DNA from: an uncultured Chloroflexia bacterium
GTDB taxonomy: Bacteria; Chloroflexota; Anaerolineae; CG2-30-64-16
NCBI GenBank assembly: GCA_963810095.1
Contig: CAWEMM010000009.1
Location: forward strand, 480,001 to 544,000
Reading direction: 5' to 3'
DNA: 64,000 nt
Shown: positions 4,842 through 55,991 of the stretch, piece after piece
Numbering within the stretch: the first letter of the stretch is position 1
Layout of the letters: each line of letters starts with the position of its first letter
Translations under genes and position numbers: made by a program
The notes under the pieces: model-generated
Told to the model about the DNA's origin: nothing
The model's input: the letters and a program-made list of their open reading frames with translations, nothing else
The model's database searches: none

Positions 4842-4950
4842 GACTTGAGTATACCCCAGGCTGGAATGGCCGCGCACATTGGACGCGACCCTGTTTTCGC
4901 GCTATACTGCACAGACTCCAGTGCTCCCAGATTCGTTCCAGGTGTCGTTT

Positions 4951-7245
4951 ATGTTTTATCCAGCCATCATCGCGGTCTTGCTGCTCATCATCGTGGCGCT
5001 TTCCGTCGCCGTGGTGGTGCTGTGGCGTCGATCGCGAGAGGTCGTTTTCGGGCTGGACGAAATTGCCGAGGACGTCCTCAAGTCGCTCTATCACCTCGGC
5101 CGGCAATCTCCCGTGGTCTCCTCGCGTGACCTCATTCGTGGCTCAGAACTCCAGCCGAACCGGTACCCCATCATTGCCGCCGAGCTCGAGCGGCGGAAGT
5201 GGGCCGTGGTGGACAGCCCGCCGTCGGGAGGGCCTGGCCTTAGGATCACGCCGGCGGGCGAGCGTCGCGCGCTCGAGCTGATCCGCGCGCATCGCCTTTG
5301 GGAGCGCTATCTCGCGGACAAGGAAGGGCGTCCGATCACCGCGCTGCACGACGAGGCCATGCGCCGCGAGCACCTCGCGACGCCCGAGCAGGTCGACGCA
5401 CTGGCAAGGGAACTGGGTGACCCCCAATTCGATCCGCACGGCGATCCAATTCCAACGGCCACAGGCGAGATGCCGCAGGCCGACGAGGGCACCCCGCTCA
5501 CCCGGTGGCCGGTCCACCGGGCCGGCCGCATCGTGCACGTGGAGGACGAACCCCCCGCGCTGTTTAGCCAGCTCGCGCTGATTGGCTTGACTCCCGGCGC
5601 ACAGGTCGAGATTGACGAGCGCATGCCCGCGCAGGTGCTCGTGTGGTCGGGCCGCCAGCGGCTAACCCTCGCGCCCGCGGCCGCCGAGCGCGTGTTCGTG
5701 GTCGATGCGCCCCCCGCAGCGCTCCCGTTGTCCGAGATGGAGATCGGGCAGGCCGGCCGGGTCGTCGGGATCGGCCAGGGGGTGGGGCTGGCCGACCGGC
5801 TACGCCAGACCGGCGTTCGCCCCGGCGTCGAGATTTCGGCGGTCGGCGTCGACCCTATTGGTGAGCCGGTGCGATACCGGGTCAACGGCAGCAGTGATTT
5901 CGGCCTATCGCGGATCGAGGCCAACCAGATCGTACTCGACGCGGGATCGATTCGCGAGATCGTCCTGCCCCGGCAGCCTTGGTTGCAGGAACAGGCGGAG
6001 CGGGTCCGCGAGCTGTTCCGGCGCTATGGCAGCATGGTCGTGTTCCGGCGCGCACTTGTCTTCTTTGGCCCGGCCTTCGTCATCAGCGTGGGATACATGG
6101 ACCCGGGCAACTGGGGCACAGACATCGAAGGTGGCGCGCGTTTCGGATATCAGCTGCTGTGGGTGATCTTCCTTGCCAACCTGATGGCGATCCTCCTGCA
6201 GATCCTGTCGGCGAAACTGGGCATTGCGACCAGTCGGACGCTGCCCGAGGTGTGCCGCGATCATTATCCCCGCTGGGCCGCCATCACCCTATGGATCACG
6301 GCAGAGCTGGCCGCCATCATGACGGACCTGGCAGAGTTTCTCGGCGGCGCGGTCGGTCTGAACCTGCTGTTCCACATTCCGCTGTTCCCCGCCGCACTCC
6401 TGACAGGCGTGATTATCTCCGGGATTCTGTATCTTGAACGGTATGGGATGCGCAAGGTGGAGATGGTTGTGCTGGCGCTCATTGCGGTCATCGGCTTCGG
6501 CTACATGGCCGAGATGTTCCTGGTGAAGCCGCCGCTCGGCTCCATCCTGCACGGCCTGTTCGTGCCTTCGCTGCCGGTCGGCGCCACCCTCGTGGCCGTC
6601 GGCATCATCGGTGCAACGGTCATGCCGCACAACCTGTATCTGCACAGCGCCCTGATCCAGTCGCGCTTCCGGCCCAGCGATTCGCTGCAGCGCAAGCAGG
6701 AAGTCTATCGCATGTCGATCGTCGACTCAGTGGTAGCGCTGAACGGCGCACTCCTGGTGAACTGCGCGATCCTGATCATGTCGGCAAATGCGTTCTCGGG
6801 TGGGCGATTGACCAATTACTCTCTCGAATCCGCCTACCAAACCCTGACGCCGCTGCTCGGTCCTGCGGCGGGCGTCGTGTTTGCCATTACGCTCCTGGCC
6901 TCCGGCCTGTCATCCTCGACGACTGCGACGATGGCCGGGCAGGTGATCATGGAAGGCTTCATCCACCACAAGATGAATGTGTGGCTGCGGCGGGCAATTA
7001 CCATGATCCCCACACTGGTCATCATTGGCCTCGGCATCGACCCGCTGCGCATCCTCGTGCTGTCGCAGGTGAGCCTGGCCTTCCAATTGCCCTTCGCCGT
7101 GATCCCGCTCGTGCTCTTCACCTCAAACCGCAAGATCATGGGCCCCTTCACCAACACCCGCCTCACCAAGGTCTTGGCCTGGGGAGCGACGGCTGTGATC
7201 CTATCTCTAAACATCGTGCTGTTGCTCCAGACATTTGCAAGTTAG
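4951..7245 (+). CDS. mntH: Fusion protein: N-terminal TM helix + DtxR/MntR-like domain + two FeoA/SH3 domains + Nramp (MntH) divalent metal transporter
   Basis: One uninterrupted ORF. DtxR motifs AEDVLKSLY, RAHRLWERYL, EAMRREH, DPHGDPIP. Two FeoA repeats (LALIGLTPGAQVEI; LRQTGVRPGVEIS). Nramp motifs GYMDPGNW and GATVMPHNLYLHS. Confidence 0.88.
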   Translation: MFYPAIIAVLLLIIVALSVAVVVLWRRSREVVFGLDEIAEDVLKSLYHLGRQSPVVSSRDLIRGSELQPNRYPIIAAELERRKWAVVDSPPSGGPGLRITPAGERRALELIRAHRLWERYLADKEGRPITALHDEAMRREHLATPEQVDALARELGDPQFDPHGDPIPTATGEMPQADEGTPLTRWPVHRAGRIVHVEDEPPALFSQLALIGLTPGAQVEIDERMPAQVLVWSGRQRLTLAPAAAERVFVVDAPPAALPLSEMEIGQAGRVVGIGQGVGLADRLRQTGVRPGVEISAVGVDPIGEPVRYRVNGSSDFGLSRIEANQIVLDAGSIREIVLPRQPWLQEQAERVRELFRRYGSMVVFRRALVFFGPAFVISVGYMDPGNWGTDIEGGARFGYQLLWVIFLANLMAILLQILSAKLGIATSRTLPEVCRDHYPRWAAITLWITAELAAIMTDLAEFLGGAVGLNLLFHIPLFPAALLTGVIISGILYLERYGMRKVEMVVLALIAVIGFGYMAEMFLVKPPLGSILHGLFVPSLPVGATLVAVGIIGATVMPHNLYLHSALIQSRFRPSDSLQRKQEVYRMSIVDSVVALNGALLVNCAILIMSANAFSGGRLTNYSLESAYQTLTPLLGPAAGVVFAITLLASGLSSSTTATMAGQVIMEGFIHHKMNVWLRRAITMIPTLVIIGLGIDPLRILVLSQVSLAFQLPFAVIPLVLFTSNRKIMGPFTNTRLTKVLAWGATAVILSLNIVLLLQTFAS

Positions 7246-7276
7246 GCTGATTCTCAGTTCTTTAAGGCGCAGGCTA

Positions 7277-7306
7277 TTGACATCGCTTGCGTTTAGCTCG
7301 TATAGT
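7277..7306 (+). promoter_or_regulatory. sigma70-type promoter of the Rrf2 gene
   Basis: TTGACA (7277-7282), 18 nt spacer, TATAGT (7301-7306). Confidence 0.75.
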
Positions 7307-7315
7307 ACCCTCAGT

Positions 7316-7338
7316 TCTCCTACTACTTCACTAGGCTA
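7316..7338. promoter_or_regulatory. Putative Rrf2 operator, copy 1
   Basis: TCTCCTA-CTACTTCAC-TAGGCTA between the -10 box and the start codon; near-identical to 8018-8040. Confidence 0.65.
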
Positions 7339-7346
7339 TATGTGAG

Positions 7347-7781
7347 ATGAAGCTATCGAAGCGCGGCGAGTACGGTTTGCGTGCAATGGTCGACTTGGCC
7401 TCCCAGCCAGTCGGCGCCGTCGTGTCCACTAAGGACATTGCCCAGCGCGAGCAAATACCGGCCAAATTCCTGGAGCAGATCCTGCTCGCGCTGCGCAACG
7501 CCGGCCTGCTGCACAGCCGAATGGGCCTGGGCGGCGGCTACGCGCTGGCGAAGCCGGCCGCCGATATCACGTTGGGGCAGATCGTGCGTGTTTTGGACGG
7601 ACCTTTGGCGCCCATTCGCTGCGTGAGCCAGATGGCCTACGAGCCATGCGCCTGCCCGGACGAGAAGACCTGCGGGCTGCGGCTCGTAATGTCGGACGTC
7701 CGCAACGCGATTTCGTCCATCCTGGATCGAACGACCCTGGCCGATGTGGCGCACCGCGTGGAGGCGGCGCGTCTCCTGTAG
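7347..7781 (+). CDS. Rrf2 family transcriptional regulator (three Cys, probable Fe-S binding)
   Basis: MKLSKRGEYGLRAM, FLEQILL, SRMGLGGGYAL, GPLAPIRCVSQMAYEPCACPDEKTC, LDRTTLAD. Confidence 0.95.
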   Translation: MKLSKRGEYGLRAMVDLASQPVGAVVSTKDIAQREQIPAKFLEQILLALRNAGLLHSRMGLGGGYALAKPAADITLGQIVRVLDGPLAPIRCVSQMAYEPCACPDEKTCGLRLVMSDVRNAISSILDRTTLADVAHRVEAARLL

Positions 7782-8017
7782 GCGATCCCTTACGACAGAC
7801 CGAACTGGTCGCAAAATCGTAAGGACGCGCTGTGTACGTAAGGGCGAGCTGAAGCTGGCCCTAGGCTCGACCCCATTTTGCGATTGACCTGGCAGAGCGC
7901 AGGGTCACAAAGCGAGCTCGGTTCAAATTGCTGTCTGCATCACGCTTGCCCCGAAGACACCGGTAGCTGGGCTGCCGGCCGTCGGTCTCGATCGGCAAGC
8001 GTCATTTTGCCATCAAT

Positions 8018-8040
8018 ACTCCTACTAACTCCCTAGGAGT
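8018..8040. promoter_or_regulatory. Putative Rrf2 operator, copy 2 (perfect palindrome)
   Basis: ACTCCTA-N9-TAGGAGT just upstream of the AGGAGG RBS of the pstS-like gene. Confidence 0.7.
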
Positions 8041-8064
8041 CATAGAAGAAGGAGGAACTCCGCT

Positions 8065-9045
8065 ATGTCCCGCCGCTCCAGAGTCACTTCTTTCGTCGCT
8101 TGCCTTGCCACCATCGCGGTGCTTGTACCGCTGCTGGCGGGGTGTGCGAGCCAACAAGTCGCGTCGCAGCAGGCGAAACTCAACGGCACGATCACGGTGT
8201 CGGGGGCCTTCGCGCTGTACCCGATGGTCGTCATGTGGGGTGACGAGTTCAGCAAGCTCCATCCCGACGTCAACTTTGACATTTCCGCCGGAGGGGCAGG
8301 CAAGGGGTTGTCCGATGCGCTGGCCGGCGCGGCGGACGTCGGCATGGTGTCGCGCGCCGTGACGAAAGAGGAAGAGGCCAAGGGCGCGTGGTGGGTCGGC
8401 GTGACCAAGGACGCGGTGTTCCCGGTGGTCAACGCCGCTAACCCCGTCCTCAAGGAGCTGATGGCAAAAGGTCTGACCAAGGAACAGCTCGCCGACGTGT
8501 TCATCACCGAGAAGGTCAAGACCTGGGGCGAGCTCGTGGGCCGGCCAGAAGTGACCGACAAGATCGACGTATTCACGCGCTCGGATTCGGCCGGCGCGGC
8601 CGAGGCCTGGGCCAAGTTCCTGGGCGACAAGAAGCAGGAAGACCTCAAGGGCATCGGCGTGCAGGCCGACCCGGGCCTGCTGGACGCCGTGGTCAAGGAC
8701 AAGAACGGCATCGGTTACAACAACCTGGCGTATGCGTATGACGCCAGCAGCGACAAACCGGTCGCGGGCGCGATGGTCGTTCCGATCGATGTTAACGGAG
8801 ACGGCACCGCGAGCGCTGAGGAGCTTCTCGAGACCAAGCGGGAGGCCATGCAGGCGGTTGCCACGGGCAAGTATCCTTCGCCGCCCGCGCGTGCGCTGAA
8901 CCTGGTGACCAAGGGCCAGCCCTCGCCGTTGGTCGCGGAGTTCTTCAGGTGGGTGCTGACCGATGGGCAGAAGTTCGTCGATGCCGCAGGCTACGTGCAG
9001 TTGACGCCCGAGCAGTTGCAGGCGAGTCTGGCGAAGCTACAGTGA
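8065..9045 (+). CDS. pstS: PstS-family anion-binding lipoprotein with atypical binding motifs
   Basis: Lipobox LAGC; ITVSGAFALYP, GGAGKG, ADVGMVSR, GKYPSPPARAL, GQKFVDAAGY; first gene of a pstCAB-like operon. Confidence 0.8.
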   Translation: MSRRSRVTSFVACLATIAVLVPLLAGCASQQVASQQAKLNGTITVSGAFALYPMVVMWGDEFSKLHPDVNFDISAGGAGKGLSDALAGAADVGMVSRAVTKEEEAKGAWWVGVTKDAVFPVVNAANPVLKELMAKGLTKEQLADVFITEKVKTWGELVGRPEVTDKIDVFTRSDSAGAAEAWAKFLGDKKQEDLKGIGVQADPGLLDAVVKDKNGIGYNNLAYAYDASSDKPVAGAMVVPIDVNGDGTASAEELLETKREAMQAVATGKYPSPPARALNLVTKGQPSPLVAEFFRWVLTDGQKFVDAAGYVQLTPEQLQASLAKLQ

Positions 9046-9058
9046 CCTTGTAAAGGGT

Positions 9059-9097
9059 CCGCTCAGCCAGGTCCCCCGCAGAGACCTGGCTGAGCGG
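9059..9097 (+). terminator. Intercistronic GC hairpin after pstS (attenuating or stabilising)
   Basis: CCGCTCAGCCAGGTC...GACCTGGCTGAGCGG inverted repeat, no U-tract. Confidence 0.55.
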
Positions 9098-9118
9098 GCC
9101 AGCGATTAGGAGCTCACG

Positions 9119-10099
9119 GTGGAATCAACGCTTCCCCGAGCTGGGGGCGAGCCAGCGGCGCGTTCAAATGCGAGCCGCTGGCGCTACCTTAAGGACCGCA
9201 TCGCCTCGCGCATTCTTTGGCTGGTCGCCATTTTGCCGCTCGTCATCCTGGTGCTCATGGCCGCGGGGCTGGCTGCACGGACGAAACCGCTCTTGGATCA
9301 TGCCTCGTTGGGGGCGCTGCTGCTGGGCGAGACGTGGAGCCCTCAGCAGGGTCTCTTCGGCTTCCTGCCCTTCATCGTTGGCACGGTCTGGGTGACGACG
9401 GTCGCCATGATCATCGCCGTGCCGCCCACCCTGCTCATGGCGATCTACCTTGCCGAGTATGCCCGGCCCAGCACACGCACCGCCATGAAGCCAATCCTCG
9501 ACATCCTGGCGGCCATTCCGTCCGTCGTGTACGGCGTGTGGGGCATCGTGGCGGTCGTGCCGCTGGTCCAAAACTTCTTCGGTCCTGCGCTCTCGGGCGT
9601 GTTTGGCTTCATGCCTCTCTTCCAGGTCAACAACCCGACCGGCTACGGCATTCTCGCCGGCGGCATCGTGCTGGCCGTCATGGTCGCGCCCGTGATCAGC
9701 GCCATCACGTTCGAGGTCATGGACGCCGTGCCGCGCGGGCTGCGTGAGGCGACCCTGGCGCTGGGAACGACCCGTTGGCAGACGATCAAGCACGTCGTGC
9801 TGCGCAAGGCCGCGCCGGGGATCATCGCGGCGGTCGTGCTGGGGTTCTCGCGGGCGTTTGGCGAGACGATGGCGGTGCTCATGGTCGTGGGCAACGTGGC
9901 CAAAATTCCGCACTCGATCTTCGATCCCGCCTATCCCCTGACGGCGCTCATCGCGAACAACTATGGCGAGATGATGTCCGTGCCGCTGTATGATGCGGCG
10001 CTGTTGGCCGCGGCGCTGATCCTGCTGGTCGTCGTGCTGCTGTTCAACCTGGTTGCCGCGCTGATCCTGCGCCGCGTCAAGCGGAGCGTGTCGCAATGA
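9119..10099 (+). CDS. pstC: PstC-family ABC permease
   Basis: FGFLPFIVGT, AIYLAEY, LAAIPSVVYG, SRAFGETMAVLMVVGN. Confidence 0.9.
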   Translation: MESTLPRAGGEPAARSNASRWRYLKDRIASRILWLVAILPLVILVLMAAGLAARTKPLLDHASLGALLLGETWSPQQGLFGFLPFIVGTVWVTTVAMIIAVPPTLLMAIYLAEYARPSTRTAMKPILDILAAIPSVVYGVWGIVAVVPLVQNFFGPALSGVFGFMPLFQVNNPTGYGILAGGIVLAVMVAPVISAITFEVMDAVPRGLREATLALGTTRWQTIKHVVLRKAAPGIIAAVVLGFSRAFGETMAVLMVVGNVAKIPHSIFDPAYPLTALIANNYGEMMSVPLYDAALLAAALILLVVVLLFNLVAALILRRVKRSVSQ

Positions 10100-10965
10100 G
10101 AAACCTGGTTTCGCGCCGGCGGATGGCATGTATCGAAGAGCGTTTCTTTCTCGGGCTGATGCTGCTCTCCTTTGTCGTGGTGGGGGGCAGCCTGCTCGTC
10201 ATCGTCGGCACGGTGCTCGTGCGCGGGCTGCCCGGGCTGACCTGGTCCATGCTGACACAGACGCCGAAGGGCGGCTTTTACATGGGCAAAGAAGGGGGAA
10301 TCCTCAACGCGATTCTGGGCTCCCTCATTCTGGCGTTTGGGGCCACGCTCGTCGCGCTTGTCCTGGCCCTGCCCATGGCCCTGTATCTCAACTCGTATGC
10401 CAGCAACAACCGGTTGAAGGCCCTCGCGCGGCTCAGTCTCGACGTTCTGTGGGGTGTGCCGTCAATCGTCTACGGCGCGGTCGCCTTCACCCTCATGTTG
10501 GTGATCGGCATGCGTGCGTCGTTGCTGGCCGGGATTGTTGCGATCGCGCTTGTCGAGCTGCCGATCCTCGTGCGTGCGGTGGACGAGGTGATGAAGCTCA
10601 TCCCGCACGAGCTGTCTGAGTCCGCACTGGCGCTTGGCGCGACCCGCACGGAGGTCGCCTTTGGCGTCATCGTGCGCCAGGCGCTGCCCGGCATCGTGAC
10701 GGGGATTTTACTGGCGTTCGGGCGGGGCATCGGCGACGCGGCCGCGGTGCTCTTCACGGCCGGCTACACGGACCGGCTGCCCACGTCGCTCTTTCGCCCG
10801 GTGGCGACGCTGCCGCTCGCGGTCTTCTTCCAATTGGGTACGCCGTTTCCTGCCGTGCAACAGCGCGGCTACGCCTCGGCGCTGGTGCTGACCGTGATCA
10901 TCCTGGTCGTGAGCCTGGGTTCACGCTGGCTGGCCGTGCGCCTGAGCCGGAATGTGATCAAGTAA
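10096..10965 (+). CDS. pstA: PstA-family ABC permease
   Basis: GGILNAILGS, LWGVPSIVYG, GILLAFGRGIGDAAAVLFTAG; ATGA overlap with pstC. Confidence 0.9.
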   Translation: MRNLVSRRRMACIEERFFLGLMLLSFVVVGGSLLVIVGTVLVRGLPGLTWSMLTQTPKGGFYMGKEGGILNAILGSLILAFGATLVALVLALPMALYLNSYASNNRLKALARLSLDVLWGVPSIVYGAVAFTLMLVIGMRASLLAGIVAIALVELPILVRAVDEVMKLIPHELSESALALGATRTEVAFGVIVRQALPGIVTGILLAFGRGIGDAAAVLFTAGYTDRLPTSLFRPVATLPLAVFFQLGTPFPAVQQRGYASALVLTVIILVVSLGSRWLAVRLSRNVIK

Positions 10966-10992
10966 GCCGCGGACGGCGCCGTAAAGAGGCGA

Positions 10993-11060
10993 CGACACAA
11001 AGCTTCACACGGCCCGGATTCCGTGCTTTGTGAGCTTTGCGCCTTGGTGTCTTTGTGGTG
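10993..11060. repeat. REP-like hairpin (CACAAAG/CTTTGTG family)
   Basis: GACACAAAG...CTTTGTG...CTTGGTGTCTTTGTGGTG between pstA and pstB. Confidence 0.55.
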
Positions 11061-11084
11061 TCAGGTAGCCGTTAGAGGAAGCCA

Positions 11085-11837
11085 ATGGAAGCACACATTA
11101 GGGTCGAGCATCTCGGCGTGCAGTATCGCACGTTCCAGGCGCTGAAGGACGTCAACGCGGAGATCCCGCGCAACAAGATCACCGTCATCATGGGACCGTC
11201 GGGCTGCGGCAAGACGACGCTGCTCAAGAGCATGAACCGTCTGCTCGACTTGACTGAAGGCGCGCAGATCACCGGCCGGGTGTTGCTCGACGGCGAAGAC
11301 GTCTACGCACCGTCGGTGGACGTGGGCGAAGTGCGCAAGCGGGCCGGGCTGCTTGCGCAGCGGCCCTTCCCCCTGCCCATGTCGATTTACGACAACGTCG
11401 CGTACGGGCGGCGGATTCACGGCATCCGCGATGGACGTAAGGACGGTGAGGCGGTCCAACACTATCTCGAGTTGGCAGGGCTGTGGAGCGAGGTGAAGGA
11501 TCGTCTCCACACACCGGCTACCCGGCTTTCGATTGGCCAACAGCAGCGGCTGTGCCTGGCGCGCGGGCTGGCGGTCGAGCCGGAAGTAATCCTGGGCGAC
11601 GAGCCCACGTCCGCGCTGGACCCGATTTCTGCACAGCACATCGAGAGCCGGCTGCTCGAACTGAAGGAGAAATACACGGTGGTGTTGGTCACGCACGTGT
11701 TGCGCCAGGCGCGCCGGCTGGCCGACCATGTGATCTTTATGTACCTGGGGGAGCTGGTCGAGGCGGGGCCGGCGGAGGAAGTGTTCAACCGGCCGAGAGA
11801 GGAACGGACCCGGGCCTATTTGAACGGTGCGTTCTAG
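11085..11837 (+). CDS. pstB: PstB-family ABC ATPase
   Basis: [41 protein letters not shown]. Confidence 0.93.
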
Positions 11838-11846
11838 GGGGATGCA

Positions 11847-11893
11847 GCATGGGGCGCGCCCACCGGCCAGCGGCCGGCGGGCGCGCCCCATGC
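11847..11893. terminator. Hairpin between convergent genes
   Basis: GCATGGGGCGCGCCC...GGGCGCGCCCCATGC. Confidence 0.6.
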
Positions 11894-11905
11894 TCCGCGA
11901 GCGAA

Positions 11906-14620
11906 CTACTGCCCCTTTGTCAGCGCATAACCGAATACGCCCGTGCGGTTGGAGAGTGCTGACGGCGAAGTATTCACCGCCGTGACCGCGTAGTAATATG
12001 ACCCCGCGCTACCTCGGGCCTGCAGGTCCGCAAAGCTCGTCCCCAACACATTCGCATACGGCACGTCGCTCGCCGTATTTGGCGTGAAGTAGGGCGCCGT
12101 AGCGCTCCGCCAGACATCGTAGTGGTCCACCACCGCGGCTTTTCCGTTCACGTCCAGCGTAACCGCGCTCCACGTCAGGTTCGCGTCCGCGCCACTCGCC
12201 GCGATTGCGACCACCGGCGCTTTCGGGGCGGTCAGTGCGCTAGTGCGCTGCACTTCCACCATGTGAATCCACTCGTTGCCGTCGCTCGCCGTCCCATCCC
12301 GGCTGTCGATGTAGAAGTCCGCGCCCCCCGTCAGCCGGCCGCCGAACCTGCCATCCGTTACCGTGAAAGTGGCGGTCTTCAGCGTCTTTGTCCCCGCCTT
12401 AACGATCGTTCCGGCCGTCTTCTCGCCCGAGGCCGAGTCGTACTTCAGCGACCACTTGTCCGTCCCGAGGTCGAAGTAGTTGACGGTGATGGTAGCTGCG
12501 TAAGTGTCCGAGCCGGGGATATAGCCGTCGTCGATGAGGAAGAACATGTACGGGTTGCCCGTGGACTGGTCTGTCCGGCGCACCGTGTACGCTTCCTTGC
12601 CTTCGCCCGTGTAGTTCTTCAGCGCCGTCACATCGTACCACTTGCTGTAGTCGTTGGGATCCTGGCCAACGAGCGGAGGCAGGTCGGGGTTGTAGGGCTG
12701 CGGGAAGCACGGGTAGTTCGGCCCGAACAAGTCTTCCCGGTAGGACCCTGTCGGGCAGTTGCCCAGGCCGGCTTTCCCCGCAGCGTTATTCAGATTCACG
12801 GGGTCTCGGGCATAGCGGCTGTCCACGCTCTTGTCGTTCGTCTCGGCGACGGTCTTCCCGCCTGTGATCGAGTCGACCTGCTTGAGATAGAAGTCGAAGT
12901 TGCCCAGGTCGGGCGACACGGTCCCGCTCGCGATGTACGACACCCCGCCCGTGCGGCAGTTCATGAAGGTTGGGTTGCGGTGCTCGCGCATCAGCACCCA
13001 GACCTTCGGCGTCGTCTCGGGCGTCTTGCCGAAGTAGGGCTTGGCCCAGATAAAGTTGTCCTTGTCACCCTGCGCCTGAAGGATCGGCTGGTCGGCCCGC
13101 TGGTAGTCGACCTTCTTATCCAGCGCGTTCGCCAGCCCCATGAACGAGAGCGCGGGGTTGCACAGGTCGGTGTCGTACGCCTCCATGGAGAAAGGCGCCT
13201 GGCCGAGGAACTCCGCCAGCGGGTCGAACATCCCCGTGCCGTCGTTCTTGAACGCTTCGCGCTGGTCTGACGAAAGCATGTTCGCGGACAGCCCCACCTT
13301 GCGCGCACCGGCGTAGTCGGTGGTGTCCTCGCGCTCCTGCACGCTCTTGTAGGTCGGCGCATATTGGAGCAAAACGCTGCGCCCCGGCGGCTGGCCGGGC
13401 ACCGAGTTGAACGCGTCGGCGTGCGCCTGGGTCACCTTGTTGGCGTAGTCAATCCAGCCCTGTGAGGTCAGGCCGGCATTCGACACGACAAAGTCGAAGT
13501 TGTCCGTCGTCGGCTGGTTCTCGCCGTAGACCCCGGTGCCGAACGAGAGGTACTGGAGGTCCGGGTTCGCCTTATAGCGTGCGCCAAAGGCCTGGATGAA
13601 GCGGACGTACGGATCCGAGAAGGAGGCGTTCTGATACTTAGGCACGAGGTGACGCACCGAAACCTGCACGTTGTCGACGTAGAAGGTGGTGACGTTCGAG
13701 GCGTTCGTCGCCACCCTGAACGCGACCCGCACCTTCTTCTCCGGCGCGAAGTTGCTCACGTCGAACGTGTACGTCTTCCAGGTCTTGCTCGTGTGGCCGA
13801 GGTTCGTGATATCCAGCTGTGTGCCGCCGAGCTTGTTATTGCCCGTGTCCCACAGTTCCATGTAGAGGTGATCGTTCGCAGCGGCATCCGCGGTGTCGAT
13901 GTACACGTCCGCTTTGATGGTCACCCGCTGTGTCCCGTCGAGGCTGGCGGGCATTGCGGGAATGCGCTCTTCATAGTGGTAGATCGTGCCCGCGGCGTTA
14001 TTCACACCTCCGAGCACCGCAGCATAGTTCGTGCCGCTATCCGGTCCGTCGCCCACCGAGACATTGCCCGACTTCGTCCACAGGTATGCGTGGTCGCTGG
14101 AGTTGTCGAAGCCCGCGTTGTAGCGCGAGGGTTTCCAGTAGTTGATGTAGTTTGGCGTCGGGTCGGTTGCCGAGTTATTGGCCGGCGCCACCGTGTCGTT
14201 GCCCTTGATAACATAGTCCGGCGTTGGCCGGATGTCGCCCGAGTCGCTCCCGTCGTAGACGCTCGTCATCACGCCGAGCTTCAGCCCTGCCTTTTTGGCA
14301 TCCGTAATGCGCTGATCGAGCAGCGTCCAGTCGTAGACGCCGTCGGCCGGGTTAAGCTCGCTCCAGCGCAAGGCGCGCATGGCTCCGTCGATTGGGTAGG
14401 TAGATGGGCTGAGCATCGGGTTCGTGCCGTAGTCGATATAGAAGACGCCACCCTGGGGGTTGAGCGGCGCGGTGATGCGGTCAGGTTCAACCCCGGCGTT
14501 GGGCGGTGCAGTTGTGCCTTCTTGCGCTCGCATGGGAATGGCGGCGGCAGCGAGCAGCAGGCCGGCAAGCGCCAGCGCGGCAAGCAGGGTCTTTCCGCGA
14601 GCATGAAAGGGGCGGATCAC
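11906..14620 (-). CDS. Large secreted modular protein: clan GH-A-like (GH42-related) glycoside hydrolase with an inserted beta-sandwich domain and a C-terminal FN3-like domain
   Basis: GTG start with AGGAG RBS; signal peptide (LLAALALAGLLLAAAAIPMRA); LRWSELNPADGVYDWTLLD, FIQAFGARY, GVYGENQP; C-terminal LTWSAV...YDVWRS...YYYAVTAVN. Confidence 0.6.
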   Translation of the reverse strand: MIRPFHARGKTLLAALALAGLLLAAAAIPMRAQEGTTAPPNAGVEPDRITAPLNPQGGVFYIDYGTNPMLSPSTYPIDGAMRALRWSELNPADGVYDWTLLDQRITDAKKAGLKLGVMTSVYDGSDSGDIRPTPDYVIKGNDTVAPANNSATDPTPNYINYWKPSRYNAGFDNSSDHAYLWTKSGNVSVGDGPDSGTNYAAVLGGVNNAAGTIYHYEERIPAMPASLDGTQRVTIKADVYIDTADAAANDHLYMELWDTGNNKLGGTQLDITNLGHTSKTWKTYTFDVSNFAPEKKVRVAFRVATNASNVTTFYVDNVQVSVRHLVPKYQNASFSDPYVRFIQAFGARYKANPDLQYLSFGTGVYGENQPTTDNFDFVVSNAGLTSQGWIDYANKVTQAHADAFNSVPGQPPGRSVLLQYAPTYKSVQEREDTTDYAGARKVGLSANMLSSDQREAFKNDGTGMFDPLAEFLGQAPFSMEAYDTDLCNPALSFMGLANALDKKVDYQRADQPILQAQGDKDNFIWAKPYFGKTPETTPKVWVLMREHRNPTFMNCRTGGVSYIASGTVSPDLGNFDFYLKQVDSITGGKTVAETNDKSVDSRYARDPVNLNNAAGKAGLGNCPTGSYREDLFGPNYPCFPQPYNPDLPPLVGQDPNDYSKWYDVTALKNYTGEGKEAYTVRRTDQSTGNPYMFFLIDDGYIPGSDTYAATITVNYFDLGTDKWSLKYDSASGEKTAGTIVKAGTKTLKTATFTVTDGRFGGRLTGGADFYIDSRDGTASDGNEWIHMVEVQRTSALTAPKAPVVAIAASGADANLTWSAVTLDVNGKAAVVDHYDVWRSATAPYFTPNTASDVPYANVLGTSFADLQARGSAGSYYYAVTAVNTSPSALSNRTGVFGYALTKGQ

Positions 14621-14835
14621 ATGATGCTCCTGTAGATGTCTTGAGGTTCTGAGTCGAGCGGCAGCGAAGCGGCGGTCAGCGTAAGGGCGCTGGGCCTTGA
14701 GGAGGAACGCCGCGCAGCAAGACACACAGCGATGGCCGTGCCTAACGAAACAAACGAAGAAGACCGGCCGCAGTTACGGCCGGTTTGATGTAGGCCGGCC
14801 GTAGGGCGGAAGGGTTGCCTCGGGGCCGTTCCTGC

Positions 14836-16758
14836 CTATCCGATTGCCGTTACGCGCACCATGTCGAATGCGGCGCTCGCCCACGATGCGGCGAGGCCGA
14901 CGTGAGTTCCTGCCCGCGGCAGCGGCAGCTCGCCAAGGTGTTGCCCTTCGAGCGCGACTGCGACTCCCAAGTGGGTCACCCGCAGCCGCCACTGATGCCA
15001 TTGCATCACGCCGAAACCTTCCGGCAGGCGCCACGCCGTTTCGTTGCCTGTGTCGCCGTCGCCTGCAACGAGTTTCCAGCCGGCCTCGGTCCGCTCCAGC
15101 GCCAGCAGCGGCCCGGCATGGTCGGCCGACAGCGCCGGCGAAATGCCATACCCCCCGCCGGCCTCGGCATCGAGCAGCCGGACGTCGACAACCAGTTCAT
15201 ACTGCTCGGCAGGGACCATTTTGGCGATCATCGCGCTGTCGCGGGGCTTCGCCGGCGAGAGCAGTAGCCCGCCGCCCACGCTCCAGTCCGCGTCGCCCTC
15301 CCAATCCAGTTCCCCAGCGGCTTTCTCGGGACCGTCGAAGAGCTCCTCCCAGCCGAGCGTGATCTCCGGCGCTGCGAACGCGGCGCTCGTACCGTCGGTA
15401 TATAGCGCGACGTCGAAGGGCTCAAACGGCAGCTTGAGGCGCCAGCGGGAGGCCAGGTTGTCGAGCATGACCGCGACCCGGGAACCGTCGACCTCCAGCC
15501 GCAGCAGGTGGTCGACCGTCGGGTCGAAACCGGCCGGCAGCGGGTAGGCGCGCTGCGCCCCGCGCACGGCGATAACTAACGCCCGTTCGGCCGGCCAGAT
15601 TCCGAGCTGCGCCGACCGCTTCCGCTCCCCGATCAAGAGGACACCGTACGACCCGGTCGCAGGCGGATCTGCACGGAGGGTGACTTCGAATGTGAACTGG
15701 GGCGCAGGCAACTCCCAGCGCGCCTCGCTGCGCTGGCGCGGTAGGGTTTGCCGTGCCTCGTTCCCGTGGACCTGCCACTTGCCGCCCGTCATGTGGGCGT
15801 CGAAGCCGCTCACGGTGGGCGCGTTGGGCGCGGGCTGGGGGGTGTGGCTCGGCCCGAGCACGAGCAGGCGGTCGCCGGCCCAGTCAAGCGGGTCGATGGA
15901 AAGGACGCGGGAGTCGTCTACCCAGCGATGGTAGACGCAGTAGAGCTGCCTGTTGTCTGGCCCACGCACCACTGAGTTGTGTCCCGGCCCGGTGACGAAG
16001 CCGGGCAGCGTTCGGATGACCAAGGGCGCGTCCAGCCCGTCGCACGGCTGATCCCACTCCTCCTCGCACAACACCTGATGGCTCGTCGCGTACCCCACGC
16101 CGTACGACTGATTCGTCCAGTTGCCGCCGCTGAACATCTGGTAATAGACCCCCTTGCGCTTGAGCACGAAAGAGCCTTCAATCGTGTGCCACTTGACCCC
16201 ACCCTTGGAGGCGCGCGCCGGATCGAACACTTGCCACTCGTATGCCGCCCGCGAAACCGGACGGGGTTCGCCGGCCAGGGTGAACGGATCGACCATCCGG
16301 TCGACTACCGTGCCCGTGCCCACCCGCGTGTACTCGAGGAAGTCCGTGGCATAAAACATGTACATCTGGCCGTCTTCGTCGACGAAAACATGCGCGTCGA
16401 TGGCGAAGTCCTCTTTGGTGAGCCGTACGCCCTTGTCGATGTAGGGGCCGCCGGGATTGCGCGAAGTCGCAACTCGGAGTTGCATTAGCGTTTCGTTCCC
16501 CACGCTGTAGTAGAGGTAAAAGACGCCGTTGAGGTAGGTGATCTCGGGTGCCCAGTAGTAGGGATGCTCCTCTGCCAGCGGCTCGAGCGCGCCGCCCATC
16601 ACATGCCAATGAACCAGGTCGGCCGAACGAAGCATTTCGAACTTACGTTGATGGGGGAGGCAGTTGCTGCTGATGCACCAATACTCGCCGCGGTGCTTGA
16701 ATACGAACGGATCCGGGGCGGATCGCTTTAGTACGGGATTCAGATACGTCTCAGTCAT
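14836..16758 (-). CDS. Glycoside hydrolase family 43 with C-terminal beta-sandwich domains
   Basis: APDPFV, WAPEI, AIDAHVF, IEGSF, GPGHNSV. Confidence 0.9.
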   Translation of the reverse strand: MTETYLNPVLKRSAPDPFVFKHRGEYWCISSNCLPHQRKFEMLRSADLVHWHVMGGALEPLAEEHPYYWAPEITYLNGVFYLYYSVGNETLMQLRVATSRNPGGPYIDKGVRLTKEDFAIDAHVFVDEDGQMYMFYATDFLEYTRVGTGTVVDRMVDPFTLAGEPRPVSRAAYEWQVFDPARASKGGVKWHTIEGSFVLKRKGVYYQMFSGGNWTNQSYGVGYATSHQVLCEEEWDQPCDGLDAPLVIRTLPGFVTGPGHNSVVRGPDNRQLYCVYHRWVDDSRVLSIDPLDWAGDRLLVLGPSHTPQPAPNAPTVSGFDAHMTGGKWQVHGNEARQTLPRQRSEARWELPAPQFTFEVTLRADPPATGSYGVLLIGERKRSAQLGIWPAERALVIAVRGAQRAYPLPAGFDPTVDHLLRLEVDGSRVAVMLDNLASRWRLKLPFEPFDVALYTDGTSAAFAAPEITLGWEELFDGPEKAAGELDWEGDADWSVGGGLLLSPAKPRDSAMIAKMVPAEQYELVVDVRLLDAEAGGGYGISPALSADHAGPLLALERTEAGWKLVAGDGDTGNETAWRLPEGFGVMQWHQWRLRVTHLGVAVALEGQHLGELPLPRAGTHVGLAASWASAAFDMVRVTAIG

Positions 16759-16792
16759 CAGGCTCTCTCTTCCGTGGACTCGTCATGCTAGT

Positions 16793-16852
16793 AAACACAA
16801 AGGCACAAAGACACGAAGTTGTCACGGTTCCCTTTGTGTCTTTGTGCCTTTG
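16793..16852. repeat. REP-like hairpin (CACAAAG family)
   Basis: CAAAGGCACAAAGACACGAAG...CTTTGTGTCTTTGTGCCTTTG. Confidence 0.7.
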
Positions 16853-16873
16853 GAGTCGGGATGCGAGCCCCGG

Positions 16874-18335
16874 TTAGGCCTGATACGTTCGCGCCGTGAC
16901 GTCGCCGCCGCGCCCGGTCCAGTTTGTGTGGAAGAATTGACCCCGGGGCGAATCGGTGCGCTCGTAGGTGTGGGCGCCGAAGTAGTCGCGCTGCGCCTGG
17001 ATCAGGTTCGCGGGCAGCCGCCCGCTGCGGTAGCCGTCGAGGAACGCCGAGCGCGCTGCTGAGTGCAGGAACCGGAACGCCGATCTGCACCGCTGCCGAG
17101 ACAACCCGCCGCCATGCCGGCAGCGCCTGCAACATCGCGTCCCGGAAGTACGGGGCCAGCAGGAGGTTGACGAGCGTGGGGTCCGCGACGAACGCGTCGC
17201 GGATGTCGTCCAGGAAGGCCGCGCGGATCACGCAGCCGCCGCGCCACATGAGTGCAATCCCGCCCAAGTTGAGTTGCCAGCCGTAATTCCGGGCGGCCGC
17301 CTGCATGAGCATGAAGCCCTGTGCGTAGGAGACGATCTTGGCGGCATAGACTGCTTGCTCAAGGTCTGCAAGAAACGCTTGGGCATCGCCCGTGAGCCGC
17401 TCGTATCCGCCTCCCAGCGCCTCTGCTGCGACGCGGCGTTCGTCGACGAGCGCGGAGAGGAAGCGGGCAAAAACGGCCTCGCCGATCAGGGTGAGCGGGG
17501 TGCTCTGATCCAACGCGGAGACGACGGTCCACTTGCCCGTGCCCTTTTGTCCGGCGCTGTCGAGGATGTAGTCGACCACTGCTTCGTCTTTTTCGTCGCG
17601 GTACGCCAGGATGTCTCGGGCAATCTCGATGAGGTACGACTCGAGCTGGCGGCTGTTCCAGCCTGCGAAGACCGCGCTCATCTGGTCGTTGCTGAGCCCG
17701 AGACCGTCCTTCATCAGCTGGTACGACTCGGCGATGATCTGCATGTCGCCATACTCGATGCCGTTGTGAACCATCTTGACGAAGTGGCCCGAGCCCGATG
17801 GCCCCACCCAATCGCAGCACGGTTCGCCGTTCGGATCGCCTTCAGGTACCTTCGCCGCAATGGCCTGGAGAATCGGCTTCATGTGGGGCCAGGCTGCAGC
17901 GGAGCCGCCGGGCATGATAGACGGGCCGTGGCGCGCGCCCTCTTCGCCCCCAGATACACCGGTGCCGATGTACAGCAGGCCCTTTGACTCGACATAAGCG
18001 ACGCGCCGGACCGTGTCTTCGAAGTTCGAGTTGCCGCCGTCGATGATGATGTCCCCGGGCGCGAGGAGGGGGATCAGCTTCTCGATGAAGTCGTCGACGG
18101 GCTGCCCGGCCTTTACCAGCATCATGACTCGCCTGGGGCGCTTGAGCAGCCCCACCATCTCCTCCAGCGAGTGCGTGCCAACGATCGGCATGCCCTTTGC
18201 CGGCCCGTCCACGAACTCGTCGACCACCGAGTGCGTTCGATTGTAGACGGCGACTGTGAAGCCATGATCGGCCATGTTCATCACGAGGTTCTGGCCCATG
18301 ACGGCCAGGCCAATGAGTGCGATGTCTGCCTGCAT
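16874..18335 (-). CDS. gnd: NADP-dependent 6-phosphogluconate dehydrogenase (decarboxylating); frameshift near 17055
   Basis: [34 protein letters not shown]; [20 protein letters not shown] in the adjacent frame. Confidence 0.95.
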
Positions 18336-28857: not shown

Positions 28858-29038
28858 ACCTGTTTAACTGCTGGATAACATACAGCAAACCAGAACGCTT
28901 GTCAAGAGGTTAATTGAATCATCATAAAATGAGCAGGGCCCGACTGGGAGTTGACCCACATGTTGCAAGCGCAGATCGTTGTACGATGCTCGATGCGGCC
29001 GCACACGCAGGGCGGCCGACAGTGTGGGAGGTGTTCCA

Positions 29039-30217
29039 GTGCACCGATTATCACGCCACGATGTTTTGCAGCTCGCCAACCCGCAAGCCGCCGCGGGCGC
29101 GGGACCGTTCGTTTCGATCTATCAACCGGCCGATGCGCCGGGTCGCGAGAGCTTGGAGGGCCCGATCCGCTACAAGAACCTGCTCGACGAGGCCGAAGAC
29201 AGGCTGGTGAGCCAGGGCGTCAAACGCGCCGAGGCGCACGAGATCTTGCAGCAGGCTTGGGCACTGCACGGGAATGGAGAATTTCATCGCGCACCCGGGC
29301 TTGGGCTGGCGCTCTTCGCGGCGCCCGGTTTCTTCCGCTATTACCGCCTGCCGCTTGACCTCCCAGAACGGGTCGTCGTCGGCGACCGCTTTCACGTGAA
29401 GCCGCTGCTGCCGCTGCTGACGGGCGACGGCCGCTTCTATGTGCTCTCGCTCTCGCAGGGCAGCGTGCGCCTGCTCGAAGGCGACCGGCACGGGGTGAAG
29501 GAAACGGCGCTTGGCGAAGATGTGCCGAAGAGCCTCGCTGACTGGATGAAGTACACGGAGGAGGTGGAGTCGCTCCAGTTCCACACCCGCACCGATAACC
29601 CGATCAGCGCGGACGTGCGGGGGGGCGTCTTCTACGGCAGCGGAAGCGCCTCGGAGCGCGATAACAAGGATGAGATTCTCGGCTGGTTCAAGCAGTTGGA
29701 AGACGCCGTGGAGGAGAAAATGGGCCAGGACGGCGCGCCGCTGGTGCTCGCCGGGGTCGAGTACCTCCTGCCGCTCTATCGCCAGGCGAGCGGGTACAAG
29801 CACATCCTGGACGAAGCGATCACCGGTAACCAGGAAGGCACACCAGACGCCGAGCTGCACAGGCGGGCGTGGGAGTTGGTAGAGCCGCACTTTGGTGACG
29901 AAGAGCGTGCGGCGCGCGAGGCCTATGCGATCCAGGCGGGCCGCGGGACGTCGATGTCACGGCTTGGCGAGGTGCTGCGGGCTGCGCACGACGGCCGGGT
30001 CGACACGCTCTTTGTCCGCAGGGGCGCGCAGCGTTGGGGAGAGTACGACGTGCAGAAGCGCAAGGCCGAGGAGCGACCGGCAGGGGGCGAATCGCAACCC
30101 GGCGACGAGGACCTCCTCGACCTGGCAGCGACCCAGGCCCTGCTGATGGGCGGGACCGTATTCGTGGTGGACGACGTGCCGGGAAATGGCGACCTGGCCG
30201 CGGTGGTGCGCTACTAG
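29039..30217 (+). CDS. Bacterial archaeo-eukaryotic release factor homolog (baeRF3-like; possible Balon-type hibernation factor)
   Basis: VSIYQP, IRYKNLL, VVGDRFHVKPLL, FYVLSLSQ, PLVLAG, AAHDGRVDTLFV, AAVVRY; no GGQ motif. Confidence 0.8.
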   Translation: MHRLSRHDVLQLANPQAAAGAGPFVSIYQPADAPGRESLEGPIRYKNLLDEAEDRLVSQGVKRAEAHEILQQAWALHGNGEFHRAPGLGLALFAAPGFFRYYRLPLDLPERVVVGDRFHVKPLLPLLTGDGRFYVLSLSQGSVRLLEGDRHGVKETALGEDVPKSLADWMKYTEEVESLQFHTRTDNPISADVRGGVFYGSGSASERDNKDEILGWFKQLEDAVEEKMGQDGAPLVLAGVEYLLPLYRQASGYKHILDEAITGNQEGTPDAELHRRAWELVEPHFGDEERAAREAYAIQAGRGTSMSRLGEVLRAAHDGRVDTLFVRRGAQRWGEYDVQKRKAEERPAGGESQPGDEDLLDLAATQALLMGGTVFVVDDVPGNGDLAAVVRY

Positions 30218-55918: not shown

Positions 55919-55991
55919 TGCCCCCAAGGGGATTCGAACCCCTGCACCAGGCTTGAAAGGCCTGTGTCCTGGTCCTCTAGACGATGGGGGC
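55919..55991 (-). tRNA. tRNA-Glu (TTC), CCA not encoded
   Basis: GCCCCCA acceptor stem, anticodon arm CAGGC-CTTTCAA-GCCTG, T-arm AGGGG-TTCGAAT-CCCCT. Confidence 0.96.

Follow-up and report, generated by a model that had tools for sequence, protein, structure and literature searches.

This work concerns a transport operon and its regulator in a stretch of 64,000 nucleotides from an uncultured Chloroflexia bacterium (assembly GCA_963810095.1, contig CAWEMM010000009.1, positions 480,001 to 544,000; hereafter the window, in whose own numbering all positions are given). The operon carries the genes of a binding lipoprotein, of PstC- and PstA-type permeases, and of a PstB-type ATPase, preceded by the gene of an Rrf2-family regulator. 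Such systems are annotated everywhere as phosphate importers. Judging from sequence, the operon probably encodes a Pst-derived importer of sulfate or thiosulfate under the control of Rrf2. With slightly less assurance, we also take it as likely that the operon represents a widespread class of sulfate and/or thiosulfate ATP-binding cassette (ABC) importers, derived from S-type Pst systems by stripping the hydroxyl and proton-acceptor ligands from the receptor. Counted as 'pstS' in annotation, this class would be the route by which numerous Bacteroidota, Chloroflexota, and syntrophic Deltaproteobacteria, as well as Methanoperedens/Methanoculleus, obtain sulfate for assimilation and sulfation, with a dedicated Rrf2 switch in several lineages. 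A preliminary description of the same DNA had proposed a Pst-fold system retooled for sulfate, thiosulfate, or another oxyanion, and the in silico results lend support to this proposal for the first two anions.

The anion site of the binding protein

The binding protein (hereafter the receptor) is encoded on the plus strand at positions 8065–9045. It is a predicted lipoprotein of 326 residues (lipobox LLAGC27) of the PBP_like_2 family, with an S-type PstS fold and the motifs SGAFALYP, AGGAGKG, GMVSR, and TRSDSAGAA...W. The motifs quoted in the preliminary description are indeed present (GAFAL, residues 47–51; GGAGKG, 76–81; RSDSAGAA, 172–179). The receptor scores under both PstS cut-offs (TIGR02136, 127.1 vs. 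206.6 bits; TIGR00975, 63.8 vs. 205 bits); the canonical PstS of the same genome reaches 286.2 bits, over the cut-off. An AlphaFold2 model built on 36 family sequences, with a predicted local distance difference test score (pLDDT) of 90.1, has the two-lobe PstS fold. The nearest solved folds found with Foldseek are all PstS proteins, S-type members leading (4jwo, 4omb, 4gd5, 4pqj, and 4q8r; 22–26% identity), and every match listed to rank 46 is a phosphate-binding protein. The match to 4gd5 has 22% identity and a template-modelling (TM) score of 0.88, normalised to the target. A sequence search of the PDB has Clostridium perfringens PBP-1 (4gd5) as its best match, with 76 bits, and 16/16 matches are phosphate-binding or PstS-like proteins. 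Helices are predicted to begin at residues 49, 80, and 178 of the model, at the three motif segments, as in the usual anion site at helix N-termini.

Residues were mapped by aligning the receptor to Escherichia coli PstS, to the canonical S-type PstS of its own genome, and to 4q8r. The E. coli PstS residues that we take to be phosphate ligands have the expected identities in this alignment. Arg135, Asp137, Ser139, Gly140, and Thr141 correspond to R172, D174, A176, G177, and A178 of the receptor, and the serine of the GS(S/T) motif is replaced by A78, within GGAGKG. At the position of E. coli Asp56 (Ser63 in SphX), the receptor has S96 and keeps the serine as in S-type proteins. According to the available text of PMC13614923, the Asp of D-type PstS makes a low-barrier hydrogen bond; in S-type PstS, which has Ser at this position, the proposed acceptor of the phosphate proton is an Asp-Arg-Thr/Ser triad. 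For the contacts described in the same text, C. perfringens S11/T12/S13 are replaced by A48/F49/A50 in the receptor, S13 being equivalent to SphX Thr17 and A50 to E. coli Thr10. The Asp and the Arg of the triad are kept (D116 and R276), and both Thr positions with a proposed proton-acceptor role in that source are Ala (A50 and A178). Altogether, six hydroxyl positions are lost from the site, and the backbone-amide scaffold and positive charges are kept. Such a site would be as expected for an anion that carries no proton. By comparison, the canonical motifs are GSDT, GGGSGTG, and SRESNSGT in the PstS of the same genome, and GSTT, GGGSGTG, and RSEASGT in that of Methanoculleus.

The receptor belongs to a large family. 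In a protein search, 7,926 of 8,000 scored proteins matched at E <= 1e-10, and the best 120 matches were all at least 61% identical to the receptor. A scan of species-representative genomes gave 43 loci. Their bacterial hosts are Chloroflexota, Bacteroidota (Mucilaginibacter, Sunxiuqinia, Bacteroides, and Segatella), Smithella, Syntrophorhabdales, Syntrophobacteraceae, Thermodesulfobacteriota, Armatimonadia, Omnitrophota, and Phycisphaerae; the archaeal hosts are Methanoperedens and Methanoculleus. Within the phylum of the window, 11/401 sampled genomes carry a member, that of the window included. The relatives are named either 'phosphate transport system substrate-binding protein' or generically, and the nearest Atlas clusters are auto-named PstS phosphate proteins. 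Thus, the earlier suspicion of a likely misannotation agrees with all database names seen.

Conservation was assessed on 53 sequences: the window receptor, 42 sequences from 41 loci of the scan, and 10 from further loci; a split match (L017) and a locus with only a fragment (L052) were left out. Fifteen positions are the same in 53/53 sequences, namely G76-G77-A78-G79-K80-G81, S96, D116, R172, D174, G177, A178, W182, N220, and R276. A48 and A50 occur in 52/53 sequences each, and A48, A50, L51, and P53 are each found in 51–52 of the 53. Position 49 is more variable (Phe 36, Trp 15, Asn 1). Identity to the window receptor is 43–61% for family members and 23–27% for canonical PstS. The mapping of ligand contacts to characterised PstS therefore bears out what had been suspected from the motifs: on the aligned sequences, the replacement of the hydroxyl ligands is a trait of the family (53/53 sequences) and not an accident of one protein.

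The G003 Bacteroidales chromosome encodes an orphan binding protein (L078, 6815–7792, minus strand), 38% identical to the window receptor, with no adjacent pstCAB. Its motifs are intermediate (SGSQTLYP and FSDSSGT, without GGAGKG), and it may connect canonical S-type PstS to the family with the Ala substitutions. In a Chitinophagales locus (L010), the binding-protein gene is present in two tandem copies (509–2633 and 5466–7608), and pstB is followed by an Rrf2 gene and then by a CitMHS/TrkA_C (DASS-like) permease gene.

In the mechanism that we propose, the system would be a high-affinity ABC importer descended from S-type PstS/PstCAB, now dedicated to sulfate and possibly also to thiosulfate. 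The receptor would hold a fully ionised tetrahedral oxyanion through backbone amides at three helix N-termini (residues 48–50, 78–80, and 176–178). The retained Ser96, Arg172, and Arg276 would be further donors, and perhaps also the invariant Lys80, Trp182, and Asn220, whose contacts are predicted. The Ser/Thr hydroxyls and proton acceptors that make PstS select HPO4(2-) would have been lost.

Gene neighbourhoods and the Rrf2 regulator

Neighbours were surveyed at 53 related loci, the 43 of the scan and 10 more, with the PhoU of the genome itself, the window Rrf2, and the window Pst proteins as queries, together with a Pfam scan of 256 flanking open reading frames (ORFs; 189 + 67). Many of the contigs are short, so that the denominators are conservative. 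Sulfate-activation, sulfate-reduction, sulfotransferase, or TauE genes adjoin 10/53 loci, genes of cysteine or methionine biosynthesis adjoin 3/53 further ones, an Rrf2 gene adjoins 12/53, and phoU was found at 0/53 by either the PhoU query or the Pfam scan. The tabulation falls on the sulfur side, as had been anticipated.

The sulfate-type neighbours lie on both sides of the operons. Downstream, cysD and a cysN-APS kinase fusion (APS, adenosine 5'-phosphosulfate) directly follow pstB in L031 and L036, cysD- and cysN-like genes are found in L023, and TauE comes after pstB in L069. A sulfotransferase gene is upstream in L029 and L031. The operon is preceded by cysD, cysN, and a porin gene in L047 and L049, by a cysN-like and a porin gene in L042, and by a TauE/siroheme-synthase-like, a cysH-like, and a porin gene in L043. 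In L074, it stands between a cysH-like gene and genes of APS kinase and sulfite reductase. The cysteine and methionine genes are those of O-acetylhomoserine sulfhydrylase with metX-like and metW genes in L030 and L034, and of ThiF, a hexapeptide transferase (CysE-like), and a PALP enzyme in L032. Weaker sulfur hints are a cysteine dioxygenase gene in L013 and a class-V aminotransferase gene in L071. These loci are not independent, with four from Mucilaginibacter, three from Smithella, and two from Methanoperedens, and at least five distant lineages are involved. As a separate matter, an Alginate_exp-family outer-membrane porin accompanies the operon in Bacteroidales/Sunxiuqinia (L011–L014, L020, and L038), and such arrangements suggest that a dedicated anion porin goes with the importer in Gram-negative carriers.

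In the window, the only strong sigma-70-like promoter found by a scan of positions 7150–12100 precedes rrf2 (TTGACA-18-TATAGT, 7277..7306, plus strand, -35 hexamer at 7277, 11/12 matches). It is followed by a putative Rrf2 operator, Box 1 (7308–7335, plus strand; core CCTACTACTTCACTAGG at 7319–7335), which overlaps the start of the rrf2 transcript, and by rrf2 itself (7347–7781, plus strand; 144 residues). Box 2 (8010–8037, plus strand; core palindrome CCTACTAACTCCCTAGG at 8021–8037) lies 28 nucleotides 5' of the start codon of the binding-protein gene. The operator that the preliminary description had seen as shared is thus real as a sequence: a 28-nucleotide direct repeat stands before rrf2 and before the receptor gene, 79% identical, with the palindromic core CCTA-N9-TAGG. 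The 19-mer CTCCTACTAACTCCCTAGG, with up to three mismatches, has exactly two sites in the 64 kb, Box 1 and Box 2, vs. 0.01 expected. Between rrf2 and the binding-protein gene, the spacer of 283 nucleotides holds no terminator-like site and no second strong promoter within the scanned region, and Rfam finds no riboswitch or other RNA family in it; the sole Rfam match of the whole window is a tRNA at 55919–55991. All five genes, from rrf2 to pstB, may be cotranscribed as a unit that carries two operators.

The regulator is well placed in the Rrf2 family (PF02082, 140 bits vs. a cut-off of 30; TIGR00738, 131.2 vs. 73.3), and it is under the cut-off of every equivalog, CymR being the best match (103.1 vs. 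195; IscR, 78.5 vs. 207.55). The cysteine cluster reported earlier exists, but its spacing contains CxC and not CxxC: the residues are C92, C101, C103, and C109 (C92-x8-C101-x-C103-x5-C109). They lie in the region that holds the Fe-S ligands in IscR and NsrR. In L017, L051, L067, L068, and L070, orthologues 71–73% identical precede the operon, and the C-x8-C-x-C-x5-C cluster is kept in the Chloroflexota orthologues. In L017, L068, and L070, the YCTA-N9-TAGR box is found 22–31 nucleotides 5' of the start of rrf2, and in L073 it lies upstream at a greater distance. The receptor gene of L067 is also preceded by the box, and those of L017 and L068 are preceded by near matches. A comparison of 18-mers between the upstream regions of rrf2 and of the receptor gene gave clear pairs only in the window (15/18) and in L068 (17/18), 12–14/18 being the chance level by a rough estimate. 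The 18/18 pair of L072 was set aside as trivial: the two genes share one divergent spacer there. The CymR operator consensus is not given in PMC2869319, and no likeness of the box to a CymR box is claimed.

By the mechanism proposed here, Rrf2, probably in an Fe-S cluster form with its four cysteines, would bind the 17-bp YCTA-N9-TAGR box before rrf2 and before the binding-protein gene, and uptake would track sulfur or Fe-S status and not the Pho regulon; both repression by Rrf2 and the signal sensed are predicted from sequence. Alternatively, the Rrf2 gene could be a mere neighbour that autoregulates or serves another target, for example the upstream MntR-Nramp gene, with the transporter controlled otherwise. 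It would fit with this that Rrf2 is absent from 41/53 loci, that the linked Rrf2 proteins are of more than one kind, some having cysteines and others (those of L032 and L044) having none, and that boxes 5' of the receptor gene are only near matches in L017 and L068 and were not found in L051, L070, and L073. The absence at most loci and the cysteine-free proteins also weigh against the main reading, and the occurrence of both kinds of protein means that different Rrf2 sensors were recruited. However, the 64 kb hold no second pair like Box 1 and Box 2, the stretch between rrf2 and the operon is free of terminator-like sites and strong promoters, and the adjacency of an Rrf2 gene to the operon (7/43 loci of the scan and 5/10 of the further ones) recurs in at least five phylum-level groups: Chloroflexota, Armatimonadia (Armatimonadota), Bacteroidales and Chitinophagales (Bacteroidota), Syntrophobacteraceae, and Thermodesulfobacteriota. 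We therefore regard a regulator unconnected to the transporter as unlikely. In L011–L014, a HisKA_3/LuxR-type two-component pair stands in place of Rrf2.

The genes around the operon in the window are of other kinds. As stated in the preliminary description, phoU does not follow pstB, because the next gene (11906–14725, minus strand) is convergent; the PhoU of the genome, used as a query, matches only outside the window. The convergent gene encodes a protein of 939 residues, predicted to be secreted, which belongs to no Pfam family and has a weak choice-of-anchor J match (26 bits, under the cut-off). Upstream, a single ORF of 788 residues (4879–7245, plus strand) joins an N-terminal membrane helix, a DtxR/MntR-like metal-repressor domain (Fe_dep_repr_C), a pair of FeoA domains, and a complete Nramp/MntH transporter. 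This fusion is unusual in that a metalloregulator module is joined to the manganese transporter that it would normally control. A 412-residue protein (28979–30217, plus strand) belongs to the bacterial archaeo-eukaryotic release-factor-like (baeRF) families. The remaining genes (glycoside hydrolases, sugar ABC permeases, and peptidases) give no hint of the substrate.

The transported oxyanion

The genome has other Pst systems. A canonical phoU-pstS-pstC-pstA-pstB-pstB operon is found about 60 kb upstream on the same contig, which makes the window operon a paralogous system. A third pst-phoU cluster lies on contig C12 (about 12,500–17,400), where pstS is split over three frames into three adjacent partial matches, which may reflect either a pseudogene with frameshifts or a fault of assembly. 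Another PstS-like gene under the cut-offs, on contig C7 beside tgt and nusA, was rejected as a family member (motifs GSTS, GGDTGNG, and REEGSGT). Among the other carriers, G001, G002, and G005 have a canonical pstS with phoU away from the family operon, and in G004 (Methanoculleus) a separate hydroxyl-bearing PstS adjoins pstC and pstA.

The permeases combine conserved and altered features. The window PstC (9119–10099, plus strand; TIGR02138, 278.9 bits vs. a cut-off of 196.45) and PstA (10096–10965, plus strand; TIGR00974, 205.6 vs. 193.45) exceed their cut-offs, and PstB (11085–11837, plus strand; TIGR00972, 325.9 vs. 343.2) is just under its own. The equivalent of E. coli PstA Arg220 is kept in 35/35 family members; that of PstC Arg237 is Arg in 34 and Lys in 4 (n = 38), and that of Glu241 is Glu in 38/38. 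In E. coli, PstA Arg220 and PstC Arg237/Glu241 form the transmembrane phosphate site, and the arginines are said to set phosphate specificity, according to the accessible part of PMC12976172. The Glu224-Thr of PstA, found in E. coli and in the canonical PstA of the window's own genome, is replaced by Asp-Ala/Val in 35/35 family members, so that the family signature is RGIGDAA (as in the window) vs. canonical RxxGETA. Sulfate would pass through this PstC/PstA-like channel with its two arginines kept, powered by the PstB-like ATPase.

A first alternative is that the operon still imports phosphate, as a second PhoU-independent Pst paralogue, perhaps of lower affinity or for housekeeping, with binding mainly by backbone amides, Ser96, and arginines. 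The PstS fold and its nearest solved structures, all phosphate-binding, speak for it, and so do the scores of PstC and PstA over NCBI phosphate equivalog cut-offs, the channel Arg/Arg/Glu, unchanged in the window operon, and the ligand-shell residues that the receptor shares with phosphate-binding S-type PstS (Ser96, Arg172, Asp174, Asp116, and Arg276). Moreover, an OmpR-type two-component pair, which could be PhoBR-like, is upstream in L076, the Mucilaginibacter loci have a Porin_O_P family ('phosphate-selective' O/P) porin, and no canonical PstS or PhoU is shown in G003. Against this, practically every member has lost six hydroxyl positions, the two proposed proton acceptors among them, and in SphX single Thr-to-Ala changes at two of these positions strongly cut affinity (available text of PMC13614923). 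In addition, phoU is missing from all 53 loci, cys and met genes are repeatedly linked, and carrier genomes keep a separate canonical system. On balance, a phosphate importer appears improbable.

A second alternative is a different oxyanion for which a proton acceptor is not required (sulfite, selenate, molybdate, tungstate, chromate, arsenate, or phosphite), with the sulfur linkage partial or secondary. The residue argument says only 'not HPO4(2-)', and according to the accessible text of a 2023 survey of binding proteins with solved structures, phosphate is the ligand of almost all members of PBP_like_2, two of which also bind arsenate or tungstate (PMC10443332). Furthermore, 40/53 loci have no informative neighbour, and TauE, of a sulfite exporter family, at L043 and L069 would fit sulfite traffic too. 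However, the Pfam scan of the 256 flanking ORFs showed neither mod/tup, ars, or ptx/htx genes nor selenium genes, and the recurrent partners cysD, cysN, and cysC encode enzymes that act on sulfate itself. The PstC/PstA heterodimer is also unlike tungstate systems. We give this alternative little credence.

Most of the observations cited in favour of phosphate weigh against a sulfate importer, as do several others. At position 176, Ala is found in 24 sequences, Cys in 21/53, and the hydroxyl-bearing Ser in 8/53. Sulfur genes adjoin only 13/53 loci, several of them close kin, no sulfur gene is near the operon in the window, and in L023 a phosphodiesterase-family gene separates pstB from cysD. 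The window's own genome, which is 88.5% complete, has no PF01507 (cysD/cysH) and no NIR_SIR sulfite reductase match, and it has about nine SulP genes, so that neither the need for this importer nor the assimilation of what it takes up is evident there. Nevertheless, the changes in the binding site and the cys linkage appear to outweigh these points, the sulfate ligand itself being deduced from them.

In that genome, a gene at 6735–9026 of L053 (minus strand; contig C6, about 1,630,700–1,633,000) encodes a 763-residue fusion of a PUA-like domain, ATP sulfurylase (Sat), and APS kinase; therefore, intracellular sulfate is needed. It is set among nucleotide-sugar genes (epimerase, fucose pyrophosphorylase, and UDP-glucose dehydrogenase), which suggests a supply of 3'-phosphoadenosine 5'-phosphosulfate (PAPS) for sulfated glycans, and a TauE-like tblastn match overlaps its 5' end. 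Because neither cysD/cysH nor sulfite reductase was detected, the sulfate brought in may go into PAPS and sulfation and not into cysteine; sulfotransferase and polysaccharide genes beside the Smithella operons likewise suggest such a use. Alternatively, the true substrate may be thiosulfate, or the reduction genes may lie in the unassembled part. As for other sulfate importers, the classical receptor Sbp/CysP (TIGR00971) has no match in six carrier genomes, this one and five others. In G001 and G003, a search for SulP and DASS genes found no SulP and no intact DASS gene, the sole DASS-type match, in G001, being interrupted by stop codons.

Relation to known systems and significance

The closest known systems are those of S-type PstS (C. 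perfringens PBP-1, 4GD5/4Q8R; Synechocystis SphX; Vibrio cholerae 1TWY) with PstCAB, which have the same fold and the same gene order: receptor, PstC, PstA, and PstB. Both have Ser at the E. coli Asp56 position, the Asp116-Arg276 pair, Arg172, the Gly177 backbone position, and the channel arginines. In contrast, the window family has Ala/Phe(Trp)/Ala for the Ser/Ser/Thr of GS(S/T)(S/T), Ala for the GSx serine, and, in the SGT motif, Ala or Cys for the serine and Ala for the threonine, with the invariant Lys80 and Trp182 added. It also lacks phoU, its PstA has GDAA for GETA, and its receptor is 22–27% identical to canonical members and under curated cut-offs.

The proposed job, receptor-dependent ATP-driven sulfate uptake beside cysDN/cysH genes, is that of SulT (Sbp/CysP-CysTWA). 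Nevertheless, SulT is not homologous at the family level: TIGR00971 does not match the window receptor, and the scores of the permeases on CysT/CysW are 24–51 bits vs. cut-offs of 246–415. In Sbp, sulfate is bound by backbone NH groups of helix N-termini together with a Ser and a Trp, no acceptor group being involved, and the donor set left in the window receptor resembles this one. Regulators of the CymR/IscR type share with the window Rrf2 a winged-helix fold family and a link to sulfur-uptake genes; the window Rrf2, as described above, differs from them by its equivalog scores, its Cys spacing, and its operator.

The known bacterial sulfate uptake systems are SulT, SulP, CysP/PiT, CysZ, and DASS. 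A search of the full-text literature, supplements not covered, turned up no account of an Rrf2-pst link or of sulfate import by a Pst-type system. The accessible text of a paper on sulfate assimilation in anaerobic methanotrophic archaea (ANME) mentions just 'putative sulfate transporters' (PMC6286981), and that of GapMind 2026 does not address uptake (PMC13759103). The operon thus combines a transporter architecture that is already known with a substrate that is probably new and with a new regulator.

If the ligand is sulfate, the list of sulfate uptake systems would gain a Pst-derived class found in both domains, and the name 'phosphate ABC transporter substrate-binding protein' would be mistaken for thousands of database entries. 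Genes of pstS/pstCAB used as phosphorus-stress markers in metagenomes and transcriptomes would then partly report sulfur physiology. For the study of anion selectivity, the receptor would also provide a natural experiment, in which, with the same fold and the same helix-dipole site, the choice between phosphate and sulfate would be set by the removal of hydroxyl and acceptor groups. Finally, the link to Rrf2 points to a circuit in Chloroflexota that would sense sulfur or Fe-S and is open to testing.

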